Source: a virus
Virus record (IMG/VR): IMGVR_UViG_3300050343_000230
Span: 13,500 to 77,499 of that record
Reading direction: 5' to 3' (one strand)
DNA: 64,000 nt
A program made the position numbers and the translations under genes. Positions 853 to 62,207 of this stretch are shown piece by piece (positions within the stretch are counted from its first letter, which is position 1; the number at the start of each line of letters is the position of its first letter). The notes beneath the pieces are model-generated. The model was not told the origin of the DNA and did no database searches. It saw only the letters and a list, made by a program, of their open reading frames with translations.

Positions 853-1062
853 ATGGCAGACAAAGCAATCCAATCTGACGGTACGACCAAACGTTACCTC
901 CCCAAGAAAGCATGGGCTTCTCTTTCCAAAGAAGAAAGGGAAGATACTGACCGCAAGAAACGAGAGGGATCTCGTAAAGGAAAACAATTTGTCGGTAACA
1001 CAGAGAAAGCAAAGAAAGCTGGTAAAGCTGCTAGGATGTATAAAAGTAAGGCTGGTAAATAA
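853..1062 (+). CDS. small basic hypothetical protein
   Basis: K/R-rich 69 aa (RYLPKKAWASLS); TAATG coupling to the next gene. Confidence 0.7.
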   Translation: MADKAIQSDGTTKRYLPKKAWASLSKEEREDTDRKKREGSRKGKQFVGNTEKAKKAGKAARMYKSKAGK

Positions 1063-3443
1063 TGGCCGGAACGAGCGCCCGTCTAAGAGAAATCGTTAAC
1101 TCATACATCGAAAGAGATGGTAATGAGTACGTTGACACGGGCATTGTCGCAGGTCATATCGCTCAGATGAAGCTCTTTGGTATCCGCCAAGGTGTTGAGT
1201 TCTTCCCTTCACAAGATAACTTCGGGAATCAGCGAAAAGATTTTATCGATAAAGTAATTAAATACAACAAGCTAGACACAAGACTTGATTCGATATGGGA
1301 TTATTTTCTTTGTGATGGAAAAGGGCTTTTCTACATCAGACCTACTAAAAATAATTATCGTCTCTATTATTTCCGTAGCCATGAGTATCGCTCTTATTAC
1401 AACGTAGATGGTGAATTAGAAGAAGTCGTAATCATCTACAGCTATAAAGTCAAGACTGGAAAAGGAGGCATTTACCAGGACATTGGTTTGTCCGGACTAA
1501 GTGGTGCCACTGATCATGAAAATCCTGGACAGAAGCGTTACATCCGTTTGTCAATCAAACCTGATGTTATCGAAGAAACTCACTCAGAAGGTGAAATTTC
1601 ATTTGACAATGTCAACATGATGACCCCTGGCAAAACCCAGAAATTTGCCAATGAGCTTTTATATATTCCTTGCGTTGAGATCTTCAACAACCCCAAGGGC
1701 TTCTCCATGGAAGGCAGTGGGGAATTTGACCAATTAGCCAACCACATCATTACGCATGATGAGTTGGTACGCAACATGAAAAAGAACTTGCAGTTCTTTG
1801 GTAATCCTACGTTGCTTTCTTCCCGTCCCAAGACGGATCTGATGGAGCCAGGGGGAGGTGGGGATGGATCTGCGCAACGTCCCTCTATTGCTGCAAACTC
1901 AGGTTTCAATAGTATGTCGCCAATGTCGCGATCTACCTTTAAACAAGATCCTATTCAACGTGGTGTTGACGGACAACTCCGTGTGCCACGTGTTATTGCC
2001 AACCTTGAGCCTAACGATCGAGTTGGTTATATTGTTCCTGATGCAATTTCAGGTGACCAGAATGCATTTGTACGACAATATAGAGAAGAGATTCGTACAG
2101 CCCTTGGAGGTGTAGATGAACTTTCAATCTCCGCAGGTGTTACTGCGACCGAATATAAAAGTTTGTTTGGTCGTGTTGCAGCCACCAGCAAAAAGAAAGC
2201 GAATTCGATTTATACGCATGGGCTCTGCCGATGCATGGAACTAATCATTTTTCAAGAGGAACAACTCTTCAAAGATACATTGGCAGCTGCTGCACAATTT
2301 GAAAAACCAATCACGCCTTCGCCAGGAAGTGGTCCAGAAGAAATGCAGTTTTATCGCGAGGCGATGGAAGAATATGACCAGCGTGTAAATCAACTTATGA
2401 TGGCATGCGTTAAAGCACAGATGATTCCACCTGGTGTTAGGGGACTAATACCAGATGGAGACATTACAATGCTTTGGCGTTGGCTTGGGCCGGTTTATGA
2501 AGAATCGACTCAAGATATCCTGAACAATTCAATTGTTGTAAGAAACTTACAAGAATTGGGTGTTGATAGCATAGAAGCACTGAAATATCTTTTCCCTTCA
2601 AAAACAGAAGAGGAAAGAGCGGAGATGCTTTCAGGATTTCCGTTCAGGATGGTTAACGAGTTACAAGGTGCTTACAACCAATTCTCTCGTTTGATAGGGG
2701 GCATGATGCAGACCCCTCATCCCCAATCTCCAGATTTGCCTATGGCAGCTGACCCGAGATTGGACCTTACTCCATATCTGTATCGAACACTAGAAGCATT
2801 ACAAAAGGAGATGAGTTATGCAGGACGCTTCCGTCCAATCGATCCCACAGATGAGCCAGCCATCCGTGGCCCCGAGCAGTTACGTGGCGGCAGCACCGGC
2901 AGCTCCGGTAGCGGCTCCTCAGGCAGCCCCGGCTCAGGTGGGGACGTACTTCCCCCAGGCGGTGCCCCAGGCGGCTCCAGCCTCGACTACCAGTTACCAA
3001 TCAAACCCGTCAGCATTCGTCCCCCCTTCCCAGGGCCAGGCGGATCAGGGGAACCCATGGGAATCGGCCTTCAACAAGGTGGTGAACCTACTGGGCAGTC
3101 CGGTGCAATCCCCGTTCCAGGGAGCACCATCACAGGCCCCGGTTCAGACTCCGGGTCAGTATACCCCGGCCAATTGGGGTCAAACAGCATCGACCCAACC
3201 CGACGCATCAACGAGCTGGGGTCAGCAGACCTCGCAAACAAGCCCGACCTCATACAGCAGCTCTTCCCAAACTTCATCGATCAACTCCTTAGCCGACGTG
3301 GCGGATCTCCTTCAGTGGAGTCCGGAGAGTCAGATGGTAGTGGCGAACTACGGGACGGAAGCGCCAGCGATTCTAAACCAGTACGCTCTAAACCTGGAAG
3401 GAATGCTGGACAGCGCGGTCGCGTGGGGAAGCGAGGCAACTAA
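1062..3443 (+). CDS. putative portal protein with overprinted G/S/P-rich C-terminal extension
   Basis: ~585-aa globular core upstream of the scaffold and major capsid genes; the last ~208 codons are low-complexity and overlap the next ORF. Function inferred from size and synteny. Confidence 0.55.
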   Translation: MAGTSARLREIVNSYIERDGNEYVDTGIVAGHIAQMKLFGIRQGVEFFPSQDNFGNQRKDFIDKVIKYNKLDTRLDSIWDYFLCDGKGLFYIRPTKNNYRLYYFRSHEYRSYYNVDGELEEVVIIYSYKVKTGKGGIYQDIGLSGLSGATDHENPGQKRYIRLSIKPDVIEETHSEGEISFDNVNMMTPGKTQKFANELLYIPCVEIFNNPKGFSMEGSGEFDQLANHIITHDELVRNMKKNLQFFGNPTLLSSRPKTDLMEPGGGGDGSAQRPSIAANSGFNSMSPMSRSTFKQDPIQRGVDGQLRVPRVIANLEPNDRVGYIVPDAISGDQNAFVRQYREEIRTALGGVDELSISAGVTATEYKSLFGRVAATSKKKANSIYTHGLCRCMELIIFQEEQLFKDTLAAAAQFEKPITPSPGSGPEEMQFYREAMEEYDQRVNQLMMACVKAQMIPPGVRGLIPDGDITMLWRWLGPVYEESTQDILNNSIVVRNLQELGVDSIEALKYLFPSKTEEERAEMLSGFPFRMVNELQGAYNQFSRLIGGMMQTPHPQSPDLPMAADPRLDLTPYLYRTLEALQKEMSYAGRFRPIDPTDEPAIRGPEQLRGGSTGSSGSGSSGSPGSGGDVLPPGGAPGGSSLDYQLPIKPVSIRPPFPGPGGSGEPMGIGLQQGGEPTGQSGAIPVPGSTITGPGSDSGSVYPGQLGSNSIDPTRRINELGSADLANKPDLIQQLFPNFIDQLLSRRGGSPSVESGESDGSGELRDGSASDSKPVRSKPGRNAGQRGRVGKRGN

Positions 3444-3816
3444 CACCCTGATGGGTTATGCCAACTTCTCCGTCAATGAGCATCGCGAGAATCTGGCTTA
3501 CAACGAAATTCTTACTAACCCTGACATCTTGTCGGATTACACCTTGAATTTCTTTGGTCCTCAAGGTCCATATCCAGTCTACGAATCTGAAGCAGAATTA
3601 GCTACCCCTGGTTATCCAACTCAGCAGGTATCTAACGAGCAAATGATTCCTGGCGCAAACTTCCCTGCACCTCCACAGGCTGCTGCTCCTCAAGCTCCCC
3701 AAGATTTCTGGGGTTCTTTCAAGCAACAGATGGATCAAGATCCTACGCAAGCATGGCGTGTGATCAACCAGGCTTCACCTCAGGTGATGGCTAACAAACT
3801 CTTCGTCATGGAGTGA
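2818..3816 (+). CDS. putative capsid scaffolding/assembly protein
   Basis: A/P/Q-rich 332 aa between the portal-like and capsid genes; AAAGGAG SD upstream of the ATG. Confidence 0.55.
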   Translation: MQDASVQSIPQMSQPSVAPSSYVAAAPAAPVAAPQAAPAQVGTYFPQAVPQAAPASTTSYQSNPSAFVPPSQGQADQGNPWESAFNKVVNLLGSPVQSPFQGAPSQAPVQTPGQYTPANWGQTASTQPDASTSWGQQTSQTSPTSYSSSSQTSSINSLADVADLLQWSPESQMVVANYGTEAPAILNQYALNLEGMLDSAVAWGSEATNTLMGYANFSVNEHRENLAYNEILTNPDILSDYTLNFFGPQGPYPVYESEAELATPGYPTQQVSNEQMIPGANFPAPPQAAAPQAPQDFWGSFKQQMDQDPTQAWRVINQASPQVMANKLFVME

Positions 3817-3820
3817 TCCA

Positions 3821-4342
3821 ATGCGTAACGCTTTGAAATATGGTATTCCTGCGGCTGCCGGTCTCGGCGCTGCAGGTCTTGTTGCCAGTCAAGGCGGGAA
3901 TCCTGTTGAAGCCGGTGGCGCTGCTATTGCTGCTGGCTTAGGCGGTGCTGCTGGTTTAGTAGGCGCTCGTCTACTTGCGGGTAAATACAGCCCTCAATTA
4001 GTATCTAAAATCCAACGTGGTTTAGGTACAGTTGAGGATCGGCTTTCCCAGGCAAGTGCAAATCGCCCTGATGGTTCGATGAGAGCCAATGCCTTACTGG
4101 ATTTATCTAGCGCGGCAGGTAACATTGCTGATTCAGTCACTGAACGTGGCATGGCTAAAGCTACTGCTGCTGGCCTAGTTCCAGCTTCTGCTGCTACTGC
4201 TGCCCTTGGCGGCTATGGTGCAGGACAAGCAGTTGGTGCTGTTGCCCAAATGATTGGCATTGATCCAGAACTCCCTGGTTCAAGCAATACAGTTAATTCC
4301 CGATTAAACATGCAAGGTATGAACTACCTTCCCATGTATTGA
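3821..4342 (+). CDS. G/A-rich hydrophobic virion-associated protein
   Basis: Gly/Ala-rich hydrophobic helices; located in the head module. Confidence 0.5.
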   Translation: MRNALKYGIPAAAGLGAAGLVASQGGNPVEAGGAAIAAGLGGAAGLVGARLLAGKYSPQLVSKIQRGLGTVEDRLSQASANRPDGSMRANALLDLSSAAGNIADSVTERGMAKATAAGLVPASAATAALGGYGAGQAVGAVAQMIGIDPELPGSSNTVNSRLNMQGMNYLPMY

Positions 4343-4453: not shown

Positions 4454-5617
4454 GTGTTTTTAGATAACGACTTTCCTAAGATTTTAGGTGCGGAACTATA
4501 CCGTCCGCATCCCGCTTATGTCTGTGAAATGGCTGTCGAGCCTGTAGTCGTACATGACTTCACCTCGCAGCCCGGCCAGACCGTGCAGCTGGATCGCTAT
4601 AAGTTCTGGGGAACTCCTGGTACTAAGGATTCACGCGAGCGTATTGCTGACCAGACTATTGGTACAGCTAATAGCCGTAACATCACGAAGGAGAAAGTCC
4701 TCGTGGTGCTTAAGGAATACACCGGCCCTGCGGACCCAGGTGATCCTACCCAGCCTTCAACCTTTAAGATTGCTCGTGAGACCCTGGTCACCGCGCAGCG
4801 TTTGCTGCTCGACACTGGCAACTTGAACATGTTCCACCAGTCAATCGGTAGCTTGACGCTGCTTGATGACTATCGTCGTTGGCGTGACCGCGTCTTCATT
4901 GACGAACTTGCAAAAGCAGAAGCACAAGGTGCAGCTTCTTCAAGCCAAGGCGGTTATTACTTCGCTGGTGGTAAAGGTAAAGATGGTACTGGCCGTATTT
5001 CTTATACAGCTGCTGAGTACACCGCACAAGTACAACAGTTCTCTGTTCGTACCGACCTTCTCGAAGTTGTAAAAGATCTTCGTAAGCGCAACGTACCTAC
5101 ATTTGCTGATGGTCTGTATCGCTGTATTTGCGATCCTACCTTCATGATGCACTTGCGTCGTGACGAAGATTTCCGTGAGATCGCTCGCTACGCAGGCAAT
5201 CCTGGACAAGGCATGTACATGGCTAACCCCATGATGCCTAACAACTCCAGTTTCTACATGGGACCACAAGCTGGTCAGGGCTACTTCCTGGCTGGTGAAC
5301 CTGTGATGCCTACTGGCGTTCAGTTTGAAGGCGTTAAGTTCTTTGAGTCAACCAACTTCCCAAATAAGAGTGTAACCACCTCATTTGATGCGGGTGCTAA
5401 CTACGCTTCTGAAGAAGTTGCACAAGGTTACTTCTTCGGTCCTCAGTCTGTTGGTGTTGGTATTGGCGGTCCTAACGCACAAGTACTCATTAACAACAAT
5501 GATGACTTCTCTCGCTTTATCATCCTGATTTGGCAGCTCTATGCTGGTTTCGAGGTCTTGAACAAAGACTTCATCACTACTGCATTCAGCTACCTCTCCG
5601 ATGACGGCGTAGTCTGA
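4454..5617 (+). CDS. major capsid protein
   Basis: 387 aa, GTG start after GGAGG, strongly biased codon usage, C-terminal DFSRFIILIWQLYAGFEVLN typical of HK97-fold/N4-gp56-like capsids, follows the scaffold. Confidence 0.75.
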   Translation: MFLDNDFPKILGAELYRPHPAYVCEMAVEPVVVHDFTSQPGQTVQLDRYKFWGTPGTKDSRERIADQTIGTANSRNITKEKVLVVLKEYTGPADPGDPTQPSTFKIARETLVTAQRLLLDTGNLNMFHQSIGSLTLLDDYRRWRDRVFIDELAKAEAQGAASSSQGGYYFAGGKGKDGTGRISYTAAEYTAQVQQFSVRTDLLEVVKDLRKRNVPTFADGLYRCICDPTFMMHLRRDEDFREIARYAGNPGQGMYMANPMMPNNSSFYMGPQAGQGYFLAGEPVMPTGVQFEGVKFFESTNFPNKSVTTSFDAGANYASEEVAQGYFFGPQSVGVGIGGPNAQVLINNNDDFSRFIILIWQLYAGFEVLNKDFITTAFSYLSDDGVV

Positions 5618-10414: not shown

Positions 10415-12148
10415 ATGACACGAAGAAGACCCGGAGGAAACTTTGGAAACTTCGGGACCGATTCTTTTGCAAAAAGACCAGACAAGAAAGATAAAAATTA
10501 TAAAGTAAAACCAATCACAGGAGCTTTTGGGGGTAGCGTTCCAGACTCTCTTTATAGCAGCAATAGAGAAGCAGCCTGGACACGATGGCGCAAAGGATGG
10601 GAGCTTGCTGTTGGAGATGGGGCACGTAAGTCTTTCTTGTATCCGTTTGACTATGAAATTCCTTTTCCTCCAGGAATCATTACACCCATTGGTGCAAGAC
10701 AACCTGTTATCTCCGGTGTCTTACAGGGTTTTCCAACTCAGAACAAAGAACTGGGTATGCACTGGGCCGGTGTTGTAGAAGCAGGTAACTTAAGATTTGA
10801 TGGCTTACAAGCACAAGATGGAACCCTGCTGGCAGTTTCTGGAGAAGCTGATCCAAGAGTTTTGTTTCTCAGCAGTGGCCAAGACAATACAAACTATTGG
10901 TATATACAGCTCAGTGGTACGTTTAGCTCAGGTACTATTTCTGGCGTAACAGGGCCTTTACCTCCGCCTTTGTATGTAAGCTTTGGTCCTGCTGGCAGTC
11001 TTAAAGCAATCAACGGAGACATACTGGAAGATACGATTTTAACTGTGTCAGGAGAAGCAATCGATGCAGAGACACGTGATCCATTAACCAATAAACTTTA
11101 CGGTTTTGTACAAGCTGTTCTTATTGATGTTGATCAAAATCAAGGCATCCTTAAAGTTGCAAAGACTGGTTCAGTAGAGACAACGATTGATTCCGGCGTT
11201 AGAAGAACGCCGTCTCGTATACCATTTCATCCAGGACGATTTCTTCAGACAGGCAGACGTTACTGTTGCTCTTGCCAGGATTACATGCGTCGTGATTACG
11301 CTTACCTATCTAATCTTGGACTTAGAAAGAAACCTTTGTTTCCTGTTACAAGGTGCGCCACGACTAAACCGGGTCGCTACGAAGTGATGACAATGAATGG
11401 GCAGGTGATGAATGCAGCCCAAACCAAAGTTAATGCACAGATTCAACAAAACCGTTTGATGACTCTTGTCTATCCAAGCGGTAATCCAAATGATTACTCT
11501 TTACCAGGGGTTGGAACATTTGAGTCAGGCAAAAACATTGAAGATCCTAAGAACTTGTATAGAGATTTACCAGGTGTCTTCTCTGATTTCGGCAAAGCGT
11601 ATACCAGAGGAGTTGGACCAAATCCTGATCAAGTTGCAGAAGGCATGCCTAACTACAACGATTACAGGGCACCCGGCGGAGAGCTTACTTTCATCGCTGA
11701 CAACTGGACCTACACACTTGATTCCTATCGTTGGTGCAAGCACATTTATGCAATGAAATTTGCTGCTGGCGAAGCACCACCAGAACCATCAGATTTTCCT
11801 GTAGAAATAGGGCTTATGAGTGAATGGGAAACAAAATTAGTTCTCAGAACCCAAGCAGAACAGGTACGTGCATTTAATAAACTGGATTATTACGGAATGG
11901 GGTACATGGATGTACCACCATTCAATATCCAGGCACCAATGATGATGCCAATGATGCAAAGACTGTTCAATGTACCTAGTACTTTTATCGATATAAAAAA
12001 CTTCATGATGAAAGATAAAGACGGTAATTACTATAGTGTTGCTTCAGGACAGAAACCTGATTCAGGCGGTCAGTCAAGTGGATTCACTATTAATGACTGG
12101 AACTTTAAAACCAACGCTTACGACTTAGGACCAGGCATAAATTACTAG
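10415..12148 (+). CDS. hypothetical protein with a split SWIM-like Zn motif
   Basis: YCCSCQDY ... WCKHIYA. Confidence 0.55.
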   Translation: MTRRRPGGNFGNFGTDSFAKRPDKKDKNYKVKPITGAFGGSVPDSLYSSNREAAWTRWRKGWELAVGDGARKSFLYPFDYEIPFPPGIITPIGARQPVISGVLQGFPTQNKELGMHWAGVVEAGNLRFDGLQAQDGTLLAVSGEADPRVLFLSSGQDNTNYWYIQLSGTFSSGTISGVTGPLPPPLYVSFGPAGSLKAINGDILEDTILTVSGEAIDAETRDPLTNKLYGFVQAVLIDVDQNQGILKVAKTGSVETTIDSGVRRTPSRIPFHPGRFLQTGRRYCCSCQDYMRRDYAYLSNLGLRKKPLFPVTRCATTKPGRYEVMTMNGQVMNAAQTKVNAQIQQNRLMTLVYPSGNPNDYSLPGVGTFESGKNIEDPKNLYRDLPGVFSDFGKAYTRGVGPNPDQVAEGMPNYNDYRAPGGELTFIADNWTYTLDSYRWCKHIYAMKFAAGEAPPEPSDFPVEIGLMSEWETKLVLRTQAEQVRAFNKLDYYGMGYMDVPPFNIQAPMMMPMMQRLFNVPSTFIDIKNFMMKDKDGNYYSVASGQKPDSGGQSSGFTINDWNFKTNAYDLGPGINY

Positions 12149-12151
12149 GAT

Positions 12152-12181
12152 TTGACTTAGCATAACTTAATCCTTTATAAT
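12152..12181 (+). promoter_or_regulatory. sigma70-type promoter
   Basis: TTGACT-N18-TATAAT upstream of ORF 12286. Confidence 0.6.
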
Positions 12182-12285
12182 GTTTTTATCAAGGAACAAT
12201 AAGTTCTCTTGATATTCAAATCAAGTTACTCGTCGAGCTGGTTGACCAGTGTCTATAGTGCCATTATTCTTTTTCTCCTCTTACC

Positions 12286-57598: not shown

Positions 57599-59368
57599 TC
57601 AGGACTGTAGCTGAAGCTCGCGGACATTCAATGCCATCTTAAGTTGATGTTCAACAATGGCACGATCAATGTCGTTGAGTCTGGCATTGCCAACGTCTGC
57701 TATCTGAGAGACGTGCATTACACCGTTGTCAACTGTTAGTTGCACAGTGTAACGAGGCTTGTTATCAATCATGACCAGTACGATCATGTGTCTGTACTTC
57801 TTAATACCGTCTGCATAGCTCTGGGAGCCGACGCAGTTACGTACTGCGCGGCCCCAATGAGCGAGCATGTGTGTATCAAGTGGTTGCAAGAACGTATAGG
57901 TATTAACTACCTCAGGTTCTGCCAGTGTGATGTCACCTTTGAGTGGTACTTTGATTGGTTCAGGGAATAGTTTCTGGGGTAATGAAGTCAATGGATTGTC
58001 TAGTTTCCATGTCTCTGCCATGAGGTGATCATGCCATTCAGTCATGCGCCAACGTCTTGGCTTAAGCTTGGCTGGATCTGTACCAGCTGCAATACATTGG
58101 GTAAGCATGGCGTATGTATCTCTCCATTCGTACGTATACATGTGTACGTTACCTGTTCTGTTGTCAATTCTTTGACGTGACTTATATTCTTTAGATGTTT
58201 CTATTGCTTTGGCATATTGCTTGCATAACATATTCAAGAAGGATTCAACAGGTAAGTTGGCACGTAACCATTCGTATCCTGTCTCAGAATGATACCCATG
58301 CATCTCGATACGAGATAGGTAACCATATCTTGAATGTAAGTAGTTGATATCCATGTCACGCCATATGCACTTGACGTGGCATACAGACTCAATGAATATC
58401 TGTAGTTCGCTATAAGGTTGTATCAATAGGTCTAAGTTAAATTGTTGTTTAGCATTCTCTGTGTCATATATAGTTTGTAGTTTATCCATTGCAGTGACTA
58501 CCATGCGACGGAACCATTTAGATTCCCATACGTCTGTTAGCCATGGATTCTTATAGTGATTAGAGATCTTTTGCAATACATCATTGATGTCATGTACGTA
58601 AGAACTCTCTATAATGTTTAACCATTTAGGACGTGTGTGACTATGTGTTAAGAGCTTGGATAAGCCTGTGCCTTTATTAGCTACGCGTTCAAATACATTA
58701 CGTGAGAAGCCACCTTTGTAAGTAGGTATCTTGCTTAGTAAGTATGCTTCCCATTTAGTAACAGCTTTGTATATAACGCTTCCATTACCCCATGATGAAA
58801 TGTAATGATTATTGCGATCAATGCCTTTCCAATAACTAGATGAGTAACCATTTTGGATTGCTACATCGTTAACTAACAATGTATCTCTGTACCAATATGA
58901 CTTACCATCTTTAACGTGTTGCATTTCTCTTCGTTTGTATTCATTATCTTCATCTGATTTAGATGATTGAAGCATGCAGGTGTTACATGCCTTACGTCCT
59001 GTTGCTGTGTCCTTATAGGTATAGCTCAGTCCGTAGTAATAAGTATCTTCTTCTTTCTGTGGTAACCATGCGGCTACCCATAGTTGTTTGTAGTAGTAGA
59101 TAACTGCTACTGGCTGAGGTTCTTCACCGAACACTGGTCGTGTGATAAGACGTACCTTACCGTTTGCAACTGACGTGGAGTTGATGTAGTCAACTGCCTC
59201 TTGCCATGTTCGATCATTAACAATGTGAGTTGGTATGAGGTTAGATGGGTTGCCATTGGGATACTTAGCTTTCTTACTAGTAGTAGTTGTCTTTGGTTGT
59301 AGTCTCTTGAGCGTCTTGTCATAGGACATGACTTCAAGTTGAAGGTTGGAAGGAAGATTGAATCGCAT
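57599..59368 (-). CDS. PcfJ-like domain protein
   Basis: WHDHL...LAHWGRAVRNCVGSQSY...YTVQL C-terminal pattern. Confidence 0.65.
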   Translation of the reverse strand: MRFNLPSNLQLEVMSYDKTLKRLQPKTTTTSKKAKYPNGNPSNLIPTHIVNDRTWQEAVDYINSTSVANGKVRLITRPVFGEEPQPVAVIYYYKQLWVAAWLPQKEEDTYYYGLSYTYKDTATGRKACNTCMLQSSKSDEDNEYKRREMQHVKDGKSYWYRDTLLVNDVAIQNGYSSSYWKGIDRNNHYISSWGNGSVIYKAVTKWEAYLLSKIPTYKGGFSRNVFERVANKGTGLSKLLTHSHTRPKWLNIIESSYVHDINDVLQKISNHYKNPWLTDVWESKWFRRMVVTAMDKLQTIYDTENAKQQFNLDLLIQPYSELQIFIESVCHVKCIWRDMDINYLHSRYGYLSRIEMHGYHSETGYEWLRANLPVESFLNMLCKQYAKAIETSKEYKSRQRIDNRTGNVHMYTYEWRDTYAMLTQCIAAGTDPAKLKPRRWRMTEWHDHLMAETWKLDNPLTSLPQKLFPEPIKVPLKGDITLAEPEVVNTYTFLQPLDTHMLAHWGRAVRNCVGSQSYADGIKKYRHMIVLVMIDNKPRYTVQLTVDNGVMHVSQIADVGNARLNDIDRAIVEHQLKMALNVRELQLQS

Positions 59369-59393
59369 TTGATTTGATGTGGTGTAAAGGAAA

Positions 59394-59427
59394 AACCTGG
59401 GACTTATACCGTTTGGATGCCCAGGTT
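59394..59427 (-). repeat. structured intergenic element family I, copy E
   Basis: AACCUGGG-CA-UCCAAACGG-UAUAAGU-CCCAGGUU. Confidence 0.8.
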
Positions 59428-59432
59428 ATTAG

Positions 59433-59717
59433 TTAGTCAATGTCAAGTTCCCATTCAAGATCTAGTGGATCAATGAATTGGATCTTGTCGTGTTCAGTAC
59501 CATGTACCGGTGGTGGAAGTTCGTCTGGCTCTAGGACAAAGCTCGCGCTACAAAGCGCTGGGCCATACTCTGCAGGATGCGCAGCGTCAGCTGGATGGTA
59601 GGTAGCAGGAATTGTCTGCACCATGTCAGCAATGTTGGCAACAGCAATCCAGTGAGACGTTCCATCGGGTTCAACAAGGTCAAGGTAAATGTTGTCAATT
59701 GAGATGATGTTGGTCAT
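59433..59717 (-). CDS. hypothetical protein
   Basis: PAEYGPALC motif, 94 aa. Confidence 0.65.
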   Translation of the reverse strand: MTNIISIDNIYLDLVEPDGTSHWIAVANIADMVQTIPATYHPADAAHPAEYGPALCSASFVLEPDELPPPVHGTEHDKIQFIDPLDLEWELDID

Positions 59718-59911
59718 GAGTTCTCCAATAAGATGATTGCAGCTTGACGTAAGCCGTTGGTCTTACCGCAGCCTATGAGCCATGCATCAGAACCTACTTT
59801 ATGCTTGTAGGTTTCGTCATGTGATGCATCTGCTGCGGCAGAGATGATGAGATACTTCTCCCATACTTTGTCACGGTAGATGCCAGGAAGTTCAGTGATT
59901 GATGAAGTCAT
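59714..59911 (-). CDS. hypothetical protein
   Basis: start reassigned to MTSSITEL. Confidence 0.55.
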   Translation of the reverse strand: MTSSITELPGIYRDKVWEKYLIISAAADASHDETYKHKVGSDAWLIGCGKTNGLRQAAIILLENS

Positions 59912-59936
59912 TTGATTAGATGTGATGGATGGACAT

Positions 59937-59963
59937 GGGTAGTTTAAAGACATACCCAGGTCT
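59937..59963 (-). repeat. 27-nt H-type pseudoknot, family II, copy a
   Basis: AGAC-CU-GGGUA-U-GUCU-UUAAAC-UACCC. Confidence 0.8.
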
Positions 59964-60033
59964 AGTTCATTGGTATCTATAAGTCTTAATAGTTGTGGTC
60001 GTGGCTGTTCCCAGGGGGTGCAGGGGGACTGAC

Positions 60034-60309
60034 TTACTGGTCGTCAGACCACATGGAGTTGTCTTCTTTGTACTCAGGTAGATCTGGTACTTGGAAGGAG
60101 GATATATCTGGTAGGTCATAGCGTTTAGCTAAGCCCGTACCAGGTAGTGATGTGGTTCCTTTTAGGTGGCCAGTCTCAACATTGATGTTGATTGTTTGGC
60201 TGAAGGGACCAATCTTAAAGGTCTTGGTGTAGGACTTGACGCCACGCTCGGTGATATTAAAGCCGAGGATGGACTTGTCAAAGTTGAATGCTGATTTCTT
60301 ACGTGTCAT
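60034..60309 (-). CDS. hypothetical protein (DUF4236-like)
   Basis: FKIGPFSQTINI...TTSLPGTGL. Confidence 0.5.
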   Translation of the reverse strand: MTRKKSAFNFDKSILGFNITERGVKSYTKTFKIGPFSQTININVETGHLKGTTSLPGTGLAKRYDLPDISSFQVPDLPEYKEDNSMWSDDQ

Positions 60310-60746: not shown

Positions 60747-61031
60747 TTATGAGTTTGTGGTTGTTTGCATAAAGGCCTTGAAGCGTTTCGCTACGTCCCT
60801 TTGTGCATCCATTTGGTCATGGGCTCTCTTCTCTGCTTCTGCAGAGGTGATCTCTTCATTCATCATGAAGGCTGTTACTAAGCCTGCAAACTCTTCGTTC
60901 TCTTGTTCGTCGAGCCAGTCGTCTAGTAGCAATGGTGCTGAGTAATCATCACCATAGTTCTGTGGAGATGGATCGAAGTCGTCCAAGTAGGCTTGGTACT
61001 CTTTGAGTTGCTTGTCTGTAAAGGATGCCAT
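60747..61031 (-). CDS. acidic hypothetical protein
   Basis: start MASFTDKQ after the family I element. Confidence 0.6.
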   Translation of the reverse strand: MASFTDKQLKEYQAYLDDFDPSPQNYGDDYSAPLLLDDWLDEQENEEFAGLVTAFMMNEEITSAEAEKRAHDQMDAQRDVAKRFKAFMQTTTNS

Positions 61032-61049
61032 GTGATGTAGTGATAGGAA

Positions 61050-61083
61050 ACCCTGGGACTTATGCATTGTAGCTGCCCAGGGT
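61050..61083 (-). repeat. structured intergenic element family I, copy F
   Basis: ACCCUGGG-CA-GCUACAAUGC-AUAAGU-CCCAGGGU. Confidence 0.8.
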
Positions 61084-61113
61084 ATTAGTTATTTGTACTG
61101 TTACTAGATGTGT

Positions 61114-61485
61114 CTAGCAATAGTAAGGCCGCTCGGTGGGATAGTCCAAGGCATATCCCGAACCGAGTGTTGCGTGAAGGGCGGTAAAGCCTCTGCTGTC
61201 ATCAATAGGTGGTTGTTCGTAGAGACAGAGGTCTTGGGTGAGGTCGAGTAGTCGGTTGATACATTGCTTCTTCGTGAAGATGAAATGGGTTTGGTACGCT
61301 TGCCCGACTTCGTACCACCAGCCGCCTTCTTCCGGTCCACCAAATTGTTGGTTGACGTTGTGGAGTTTGATGCTGGTTGGTTCTGCACCGTCCCAGTCGG
61401 TTGCCCAGTTGTACTGGTCGATCCAGTATCGGGCTGCTCCGGTGCGTGGATAGCGGTTGATGTAGTCCTGGAGGAGTGAGGCCAT
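61114..61485 (-). CDS. conserved phage hypothetical protein
   Basis: FGGPEEGGWWY...YPTERPYYC. Confidence 0.7.
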   Translation of the reverse strand: MASLLQDYINRYPRTGAARYWIDQYNWATDWDGAEPTSIKLHNVNQQFGGPEEGGWWYEVGQAYQTHFIFTKKQCINRLLDLTQDLCLYEQPPIDDSRGFTALHATLGSGYALDYPTERPYYC

Positions 61486-61558
61486 AGGAGGATTGAAAGT
61501 AAAGCAATGATGTGATCGATGACGTGAACCTCGACAGGTTCAACTGTGGGCTTGAGTT

Positions 61559-61735
61559 TCAAAGGAGAGCCTCAGGGTGATTGTCAATGAACTGTTCGTA
61601 GACATGGTCTACTTCTGGTTCGTCCATTTCCTCACGCATTGCGTTCTCTTGTTGATAAGCAATGTCTGCAAGGATGTCAAGGTCGTCGGCCTTGATCTCT
61701 TGCATGAGGCGATGGAGTTCGGACATGGTTGACAT
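61559..61735 (-). CDS. acidic hypothetical protein (58 aa)
   Basis: MSTMSELHRLMQEIKADD...; read manually, follows a family II element. Confidence 0.6.
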   Translation of the reverse strand: MSTMSELHRLMQEIKADDLDILADIAYQQENAMREEMDEPEVDHVYEQFIDNHPEALL

Positions 61736-61764
61736 GATGTTGAATTGAATAATGTGATGGGACA

Positions 61765-61791
61765 GGACAGTTTAAGGACATGTCCAGGTCC
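61765..61791 (-). repeat. 27-nt H-type pseudoknot, family II, copy b
   Basis: GGAC-CU-GGACA-U-GUCC-UUAAAC-UGUCC. Confidence 0.8.
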
Positions 61792-61952
61792 ATAGATTAG
61801 CGTTTGAGTAGTCTGTAAAGCCACCTGGCTATTGCATTTCTTAACCCTGGTGACTTATAAGAGTCAAGGGTGCAAAAGTTATATTTAGAAATGCGGAAGG
61901 TGTGTTGTGCCATGTGTCTTGCAAATAGAATTATGCGTTTGGAAAGTGTTAC

Positions 61953-62207
61953 TTAGAAGCTAATGAAAGGAGCTTGAATAGTGTTGCTTGGTGCTGGTGA
62001 TTGGACATAGCGTTGGCAATAAGCCATGACTTGTCCATCGTTATAGCCTGCATTCTGTAGTTGATTGATACAGATACAGGCCTGAGTACCAAGCTGAGAT
62101 ATACAGTAGTTCATAACAGGACTAGCCTGAGAACTGGAGTAGTACTGAGCCTTGGCTTCCAACCCTGCGGTTGTGGCGACAAGGAGGGGGAGGAGGAACT
62201 TGATCAT
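61953..62207 (-). CDS. signal-peptide-bearing hypothetical protein
   Basis: MIKFLLPLLVATTAGLEAKAQ. Confidence 0.5.
   Translation of the reverse strand: MIKFLLPLLVATTAGLEAKAQYYSSSQASPVMNYCISQLGTQACICINQLQNAGYNDGQVMAYCQRYVQSPAPSNTIQAPFISF

Follow-up and report, generated by a model that had tools for sequence, protein, structure and literature searches.

A 626-nt overlap in which a portal-like and a scaffold-like gene of a tailed phage are probably both encoded

Introduction

Can two core head genes of a tailed phage be encoded in the same DNA, in different reading frames, over some 200 codons of each? To our knowledge, long out-of-frame overlaps are textbook matter for tiny single-stranded DNA and RNA viruses, whereas those of tailed double-stranded DNA phages are regarded as few and short. 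The question is raised by a locus in the IMG/VR record IMGVR_UViG_3300050343_000230, a 77.5-kb viral genome estimated to be 98% complete. The stretch analysed here, termed the window, comprises 64,000 nucleotides (nt), bases 13500-77499 of that record. In it, a portal-like open reading frame (ORF) continues far into the scaffold-like gene that follows it. A first-pass annotation, made from the sequence alone, described this as a portal tail overprinted on a scaffold gene, kept open by stop avoidance and under selection up to a basic C-terminal end.

Based on comparisons with relatives of the window phage, we consider it very probable that two head-morphogenesis genes of an S-EIV1-like cyanophage are encoded here in the same DNA in two frames and that both are under selection. 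The earlier interpretation as a whole is partly supported: the dual coding appears to be real, but selection of the basic end, the direction of the overprinting and the label of scaffold are not established. The features on which the argument turns are the following.

1062..3443, + strand: portal-like gene, 793 aa, with a core (residues 1-585) and a G/S/P-rich C-terminal tail (residues 586-793)
2818..3816, + strand: downstream scaffold-like gene, 332 aa, with a Q/P/A/S-rich N-terminal half and a helical C-terminal half, as predicted
2818..3443, + strand: dual-coding overlap, 626 nt, in which the downstream frame is the portal frame +1 and both frames are open
2812..2814, + strand: TGA stop in the downstream frame, which shuts that frame one codon 5' of the ATG
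3441..3443, + strand: portal stop TAA, which arises from the scaffold-frame junction act-aac

Two open frames and their composition

The dual-frame overlap is confirmed as an observation. Its coordinates, the +1 offset and the open portal frame inside the scaffold-like ORF are exactly as first described. In almost every locus the downstream ORF, read from stop to stop, starts only 3 nt 5' of the ATG.

The sole named relative of the window phage is S-EIV1 (KJ410740), a polar freshwater phage of Synechococcus PCCC-A2c and the one isolate among its relatives in the phage collection searched. A scan of IMG/VR yielded more than 598 relatives, from which the best 80, with 69-99% portal identity, were taken. 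Together with the window and S-EIV1 they form a close set of 82 sequences, 80 of them complete at the locus and 2 cut. Diversity, stop, junction and codon counts were obtained from 58 non-redundant representatives of this set.

The overlap coincides with a sharp change in base composition. In the window, the GC content is 0.58-0.66 over positions 2700-3450, compared with ~0.43 upstream and 0.47-0.53 downstream; in the 58 representatives it is 0.61 in the overlap and 0.43 in the portal flank. The avoidance of stops is visible at the junctions between scaffold-frame codons at which a T in third position would create a portal-frame stop. The overlap contains 29 of these junctions (more than 20 had been claimed) and none ends in T, whereas past the portal stop T returns at 7 of 20, in line with the earlier description. 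Among the representatives, third-position T occurs at 0 of 1448 at-risk junctions in the overlap, at a frequency of 0.19 at non-risk sites in the overlap and of 0.42-0.53 outside it. As the complete lack of T in an open frame is a tautology, the significance of the junctions rests on the comparison with non-risk sites and with the DNA outside. We infer that a high GC content, together with the depletion of T, prevents stops in both frames and represents the compositional price of this dual openness.

From base composition alone, ~5 stops would be expected per 208 codons, and the probability of finding none is 0.003. We also resampled the overlap by redrawing synonymous codons while one protein was held fixed, using either the codon usage of the flanks or that of the overlap itself. 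With the scaffold-like protein fixed, the portal frame stayed open to the observed stop in 0-0.2% of trials under flank usage and in 0.2-5.7% under the overlap's own usage; under flank usage, the probability that it stays open for at least 470 nt is at most 0.4%. In the reciprocal design, with the portal fixed, the scaffold frame was open in 0-6% of resamplings. Across the overlap DNA of the 58 representatives there are 0 stops in either coding frame, compared with a mean of 6.6 in the third frame of the + strand and 4.5-11 in the reverse frames. Taken together, the resampling and the control frames exclude composition alone as the cause of the overlap.

Selection on both frames

All 80 complete sequences of the close set have both frames open, as do the two cut sequences as far as they extend, and the overlaps measure 506-644 nt. 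A portal stop near codon ~590 is thus not found in close relatives, as the portal frame remains open for at least 506 nt in each of them. Insertions and deletions within the overlap occur in multiples of three only.

To separate the two frames, substitutions were sorted into four classes, SS, SN, NS and NN, according to whether they are synonymous (S) or non-synonymous (N) in the portal frame (first letter) and in the downstream frame (second letter). Counts come from 21 nearest-neighbour pairs with a four-fold divergence of 0.08-0.39, and rates were scaled to synonymous change in the flanks outside the overlap (pS 0.278, with a flank ratio of non-synonymous to synonymous change, pN/pS, of 0.06-0.08). 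Changes that are synonymous in both frames occur at 1.12x flank pS (95% interval 0.74-1.53). Changes that alter the downstream protein only are reduced to 0.19x (0.14-0.24), those that alter the portal only to 0.29x (0.25-0.34), and those that alter both proteins to 0.07x. Doubly synonymous sites evolving at the neutral flank rate while SN and NS are low indicates a normal supply of mutations, no constraint at the nucleotide level and purifying selection on each of the two proteins.

This conclusion agrees with diversity at the individual codon positions. In the flank, diversity at portal positions 1, 2 and 3 is ~0.15, 0.08 and 0.5, respectively. Within the overlap, position 3 drops to 0.04-0.40 and position 1 climbs, and the frame with the highest diversity switches along the overlap. 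Both frames are retained in all 80 complete sequences, with reduced diversity at the portal third position. The proposal that the portal extension is under selection holds for most of its length: the tail is conserved in more than 80 close and more than 60 distant relatives, and portal-altering changes are suppressed. It fares worse at the basic end, where constraint on the tail is lowest.

A mosaic of constraint

Constraint is distributed unevenly along the overlap, which can be divided into four segments of distinct character.

2818..2860, + strand: segment tight in both frames, with the initiation region; portal YAGRYRPIDPTDEP, downstream MQDATVQSIPQ
3052..3123, + strand: downstream-frame-dominated segment, motif NPWESAFNKVVNLLGSPVQSPFQG, predicted helix 80-93
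3216..3290, + strand: portal-frame-dominated segment, motif IGSADL..KPDLIAQLFPN.., two short predicted helices
3296..3443, + strand: end of the portal tail, an acidic and then a basic run, which overlies the start of the downstream structured domain; portal frame weakly constrained

At the start of the overlap neither protein appears free to vary. Over 2817-2860, SN is 0.10 and NS 0.12 of neutral and diversity amounts to 0.01-0.08 at all three codon positions; within 2818-2847 it is near zero at every position. Diversity peaks at the downstream third position in 2863-2985 and again in 3061-3120, in the latter stretch still below the level of the flank. The downstream frame dominates at 3052-3123, where diversity at its positions 1 and 2 is 0.03-0.15 and at its position 3 is 0.26-0.29. 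Here, the motif NPWESAFNKVVNLLGSPVQSPFQG is near-invariant in the alignment, and it is recognisable as NPW..AF in distant clades, while the portal frame over these bases reads as a variable ..MGIGVQQGGEP..IPVPGST. The roles are exchanged further downstream. Over 3205-3288 the portal third position varies most, exceeding portal position 1, and over 3201-3295 NS falls to 0.15 of neutral while SN is 0.44; at 3216-3290 the downstream frame encodes a variable S/T/Q-rich run. Conserved motifs of the portal tail comprise YAGRYRPIDPTDEP, YQLPI.PVSIRPP, IPVPGST and GSADL..KPDLIAQLFPN. The few conserved motifs of each protein would thus mostly sit over tolerant, low-complexity sequence of the other.

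The last segment differs. In 3296-3443, SN is 0.07 and NS 0.47 of neutral, and diversity is 0.43-0.57 at the downstream third position and 0.04-0.29 at its second; positions 3292-3441 show the ordinary single-gene pattern of the downstream frame. Among close relatives the position of the portal stop is spread over ~140 nt. When synonymous codons of the downstream gene were redrawn, no stop arose in the last 40 portal codons in 19% of resamplings for the window, within an overall range of 17-56%. These 40 codons encode 9 lysines and arginines, against a mean of 8.5 in the stop-free resamplings (P=0.48). As this number is predicted by the scaffold frame, the basic run in the window clade is largely a by-product of the other frame. 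The first-pass annotation had taken the basic end to be selected; independent selection of this end is rejected for the window clade, given the lysine and arginine resampling, the scaffold-only codon pattern, the wandering stop and the weak suppression of portal-altering changes. Marginal enrichment of the two residues was seen in 3 of 12 sequences tested (L045, L093 and L083; P=0.002-0.04), two of which come from distant clades, and basic tail ends recur in all clades, with differing sequences, so that a preference for such ends may exist across the family. The last ~120-150 nt of the window's portal ORF are best described as a weakly selected run-on.

Initiation inside the portal gene

A strong candidate for a second start lies within the portal gene.

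2804..2809, + strand: Shine-Dalgarno (SD) sequence AAGGAG of the internal gene, 8 nt 5' of the ATG and inside the portal codons K-E

The pattern AAAAGGAGATGAG[TC]TATG occurs exactly once in each of the 82 sequences, and the start site reads CAA AAG GAG ATG AG(T/C) TAT GCA in 58 of 58 non-redundant relatives. Codon usage in the flanks would permit other choices, with AAG making up 35% of lysine codons, GAG 33% of glutamate codons and TAT 62% of tyrosine codons. Codons that stay invariant despite common synonymous alternatives indicate that the SD and the start codon are under selection. A later ATG at 3452, the alternative start of the downstream gene, has no SD before it.

The portal gene itself begins differently. 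Its start overlaps the stop of an upstream 69-aa ORF (TAATG, 1060-1064) and is preceded only by a weak SD-like TAAGG, which suggests translational coupling and low initiation relative to the internal gene. We infer from the conserved SD and ATG that both frames are translated across the overlap. Ribosomes entering at 1062 would produce the portal protein, a conserved core of ~585 aa followed by a tail of ~150-210 aa that is predicted to be largely disordered, whereas those entering independently at the strong internal SD-ATG (2804-2820) would read frame +1 and produce the 332-aa protein. A strong internal SD next to a weak, stop-start-coupled portal start may yield far more downstream protein than portal. 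Such a ratio would be appropriate for a protein required in many more copies than the 12 of the portal.

Alternative explanations

The most serious challenge to dual coding is that only the scaffold-like frame functions in the overlap and that the portal tail is an unselected read-on, persisting because the DNA is rich in GC and poor in T. The last ~150 nt fit this idea in their codon-position pattern, their variable portal stop and a basic composition predicted by the scaffold frame, and their final 40 portal codons stay open in 17-56% of resamplings. Over the overlap as a whole, however, portal-altering changes are held at 0.29x neutral, falling to 0.15x in 3201-3295, and portal-frame motifs persist down to 35% core identity. 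Nor does permissive composition suffice, since the third frame of the same GC-rich DNA carries 6.6 stops and the portal frame is open for at least 506 nt in every close relative, where, under flank codon usage, even 470 nt would be reached with a probability of at most 0.4%. We regard this explanation as very unlikely. Conversely, only the portal frame might function, with a downstream gene that begins 3' of the portal stop, like the 133-aa gene annotated in S-EIV1, and with the open frame 5' of this start as a by-product. This view can point to the GenBank gene start at 59863 in that phage and to the low complexity and predicted disorder of the N-terminal half of the long ORF. It is highly improbable in light of an SN rate of 0.19x neutral, of NPWESAFNKVVNLLGSPVQSPFQG varying less than the portal residues that these bases encode, and of a scaffold frame that is open in at most 6% of resamplings with the portal fixed. 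Moreover, the SD and ATG are invariant against codon usage while the ATG at 3452 has no SD, and the downstream structured domain clearly starts 5' of the portal stop.

A further alternative attributes the conservation to a nucleic-acid element (an RNA structure, or a signal for packaging or regulation) and not to the encoding of two proteins. In its favour, hardly any position varies in the first 45 nt of the overlap, and the region forms a sharp GC island. This alternative is barely credible, because doubly synonymous sites evolve at the neutral flank rate (1.12x, and 1.7x in the replicate described below), variation tracks codon phase and switches by segment, and insertions and deletions keep to multiples of three. 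Lastly, programmed frameshifting might link the two frames, with a fusion product or a shortened portal as the functional product. The portal frame does contain a formal slippery heptamer, C CCA AAC (3266-3272), which is present in 44 of 58 relatives; after a -1 slip at this site, translation would terminate at a TAG (3290-3292) immediately 5' of the tail's weakly constrained end. This heptamer is fully accounted for by conserved F-P-N / S-Q-T codons of the two frames and is probably coincidental, no scaffold-frame heptamer occurs in more than 16 of the 58, and the internal gene is equipped with a conserved SD and ATG of its own. We give frameshifting very little credence, and a frameshift entry into the second frame is unnecessary for anything observed.

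The reading we prefer, two proteins encoded and selected in the two frames, has several points weighing against it. The 21 pairs are nearest neighbours whose phylogenetic independence is unproven. Low-complexity parts rich in indels were aligned with the portal frame as guide, which may introduce a slight bias towards it, and conditioning on open frames drops stop-creating changes from the counts, so that NS and SN come out slightly too low. For 3296-3443, coding by the scaffold frame alone explains the data almost equally well. The structure models, built from 29-row alignments, reach a predicted local distance difference test score (pLDDT) of 35 for the portal and 49 for the downstream protein, so that both the disorder, including that of the portal tail, and the helices are tentative. 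As to the scaffold family, the downstream protein has no match in Pfam, PHROGs, the PDB or the language-model Atlas.

Identity of the two proteins

That the 793-aa protein is a portal, as had been proposed, is supported by its homologues and its genomic position. The window protein itself matches phrog_20475 ('virion structural protein') over a length that includes most of the tail (E=5e-255, to residue 738), and among PHROGs it matches only this family. Of 60 diverse homologues, 27 match phrog_64 'portal protein' (best E=2e-10), one each matches phrog_104 and phrog_533, and 10 match PF05133 weakly. In the Atlas, portal clusters are the best named matches of the window portal. Profile searches of the PDB gave no match for the first two alignments, and a deeper portal alignment matches only a portal (E=0.35); in a direct hhalign comparison with SPP1 gp6 alone, this alignment gave no significant match. 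Searches of Pfam and NCBIfam with the window proteins gave no match. A TerL homologue ends ~2.3 kb upstream of the portal gene in the same genome, and the order is the same in S-EIV1.

TerL itself differs between the two phages. S-EIV1 TerL has 846 aa (L001 526-3066), and its homologue in the window genome is a 513-aa frame (record 10698-12221) that matches residues 1-198 and 532-846. The gap in this match suggests an insert of ~330 aa in S-EIV1, possibly intein-like, that the window phage is without.

The C-termini of solved portals face the capsid interior. By analogy with these structures, the tail would leave the portal crown into the capsid interior, so that a head might hold twelve such tails. 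The complex prediction for the portal tail (586-793) with the downstream protein returned a score of 0.00, which is no answer and speaks neither for nor against binding.

Downstream of the portal, the gene order is portal, 332-aa gene, 173-aa ORF and capsid.

3821..4342, + strand: 173-aa ORF between the scaffold-like and capsid genes, with no Pfam or PHROG family found
4454..5617, + strand: major capsid protein gene, 387 aa, phrog_1357 'major head protein' (E=1.7e-16)

Gene position and predicted helicity suggest that the 332-aa protein is a scaffolding or internal head protein. The earlier label of scaffold goes further than this, as it rests on gene order and predicted helices and has no family match behind it; Pfam returned only coiled-coil-like noise, and an Atlas search with the C-terminal half found no match. 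The model of the downstream protein places helices at residues 80-93, 158-245 and 297-328 and is disordered up to residue ~156 save for 80-93. The protein would accordingly combine a disordered, Q/P/A-rich N-terminal half, containing one conserved helix (NPWESAFNKVVNLL), with a helical C-terminal half.

The downstream protein is homologous over its full length to S-EIV1 DNA from position 59287. In GenBank, the gene that follows the S-EIV1 portal begins at 59863 and encodes 133 aa, whereas homology, SD and ATG place the start at 59287, inside the portal gene (L001 5733-6710, record 59287-60264). In public gene calls, the full-length form is found mainly on short contigs in which the portal gene is cut. 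The S-EIV1 start, 576 nt late, and the calls on cut contigs point to a systematic annotation error, in which gene callers shorten one of the two partners.

The capsid protein of the window is 85% identical to an unannotated 385-aa frame of S-EIV1 (L001 7299-8453; record 60853-62007, + strand). At this locus the S-EIV1 record carries a minus-strand coding sequence (60784..61545) and a shortened + strand coding sequence (61540..62010) instead of a single one.

Distant clades and origin of the overlap

The overlap extends well beyond the close set. Distant loci were collected by related-locus searches with protein alignments as queries; two single-protein queries returned no loci. In clades at 35-56% portal identity, a +1 ORF spans the portal stop in all complete loci. 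Of the 57 complete loci, 55 have an overlap of 340-584 nt and two are without an ATG at the usual site; the portal codons EL(T/N)Y (TAT-G) contain the ATG in 52 of the 57. When the class test was repeated with 5 pairs of a distant clade, it gave SN 0.16, NS 0.20, NN 0.06 and SS 1.7. At ~30% portal identity, a +1 overlap is present in 10 of 10 loci, with a length of 65-398 nt.

Motifs are kept across clades in both frames. The portal frame retains ELxYAG, (I/L)P.PG(S/T) and, at 35-55% identity, GSADL..PG.L.QLFP; the downstream frame retains MQD.., NPW..AF, EAPA.LN.Y.C..ED.L, an FFGP.GP block and the C-terminal helices. An exhaustive profile-free search gave 289 representative portal clusters, of which the full-length ones mostly have 640-840 aa. 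The core match ends near residue 540-596 in these clusters, and C-terminal tails are therefore general in the portal family.

How such an arrangement arose can be approached through length. The downstream protein is fairly constant (277-390 aa), and portal length varies via the tail. Together with an overlap range of 65-644 nt, this pattern suggests that the portal tail is the part that grew. The claim that the tail was overprinted on the scaffold gene presupposes a direction of origin that is not established, and the spread of overlap lengths is the one hint of it. A possible, though doubtful, scenario is the birth of a protein region by overprinting. Here, the portal frame would have lost stops and run over the N-terminus of the scaffold-like gene, with a short ancestral stop-start overlap (65-180 nt), like those of the most distant clades, growing stepwise to more than 600 nt. 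The tail would have gained the motifs IPVPGST and GSADL..QLFP and a role inside the head, for example contact with scaffold or core or with packaged DNA. Assembly partners would in this way be locked in one DNA, with their ratio set by the internal SD.

Comparison with known overlapping genes

The spanin genes Rz/Rz1 of lambda and 18.5/18.7 of T7 are same-strand pairs in which one frame is +1 of the other, both genes are functional and the second has an internal start. The portal and downstream genes likewise share a strand, a +1 offset and an internal start of the second gene. Whereas Rz1 is short, wholly embedded and acts in lysis, the pair described here consists of two large head genes joined end to start over 500-640 nt (~200 codons each) of mostly disordered sequence. 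In head genes of the lambda C/Nu3 type, nesting is in frame, the scaffold originates from an internal start and amino-acid sequence is shared. Head-assembly proteins share DNA in both cases, but the present pair uses different frames and its proteins have no sequence in common. With the barrel of P22 gp1, the portal tail has in common that a long extension follows the portal core and is expected to project into the capsid interior. That barrel is an ordered coiled-coil encoded in unshared DNA, unlike the present tail, which is G/S/P-rich, predicted to be mostly disordered in a low-confidence model, and encoded in DNA shared with the next gene.

A parallel in coding style comes from the A/B/K and D/E genes of phiX174 and G4 (cited in PMC8227390), with long out-of-frame dual coding, selection on both frames, compositional bias and a mosaic of constraint. 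However, these are 5-kb single-stranded DNA phages under strong size limits, and the window phage is a 77-kb double-stranded DNA tailed phage with no obvious need for compaction. The same systematic review of viral overlapping genes mentions no portal case in tailed phages (PMC8227390), and our literature search found no paper on the present overlap, nor any proteomic or ribosome-profiling data. In SPP1 (X97918), gene 6 (portal) and gene 7 overlap on the same strand by 44 nt (3802..3845), an ordinary short overlap that is comparable to the 65-86 nt seen in the most distant relatives and unlike the 626 nt of the window.

Implications

The overlap is notable for its length, its age, its place in core head genes and its wide distribution. 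The portal family concerned is very large and mostly from uncultured aquatic phages, with more than 2000 portal clusters in public data. Overlap lengths from 65 to 644 nt within it form a natural series for studying how overprinting grows, and the locus illustrates how one sequence can serve, as a mosaic, two protein regions of predicted disorder. It also predicts, by analogy with solved portals, an unusual portal, which would carry twelve long flexible tails inside the capsid. As the architecture is kept down to ~30% portal identity, dual coding may be stable over the long term in these phages even without pressure on genome size.

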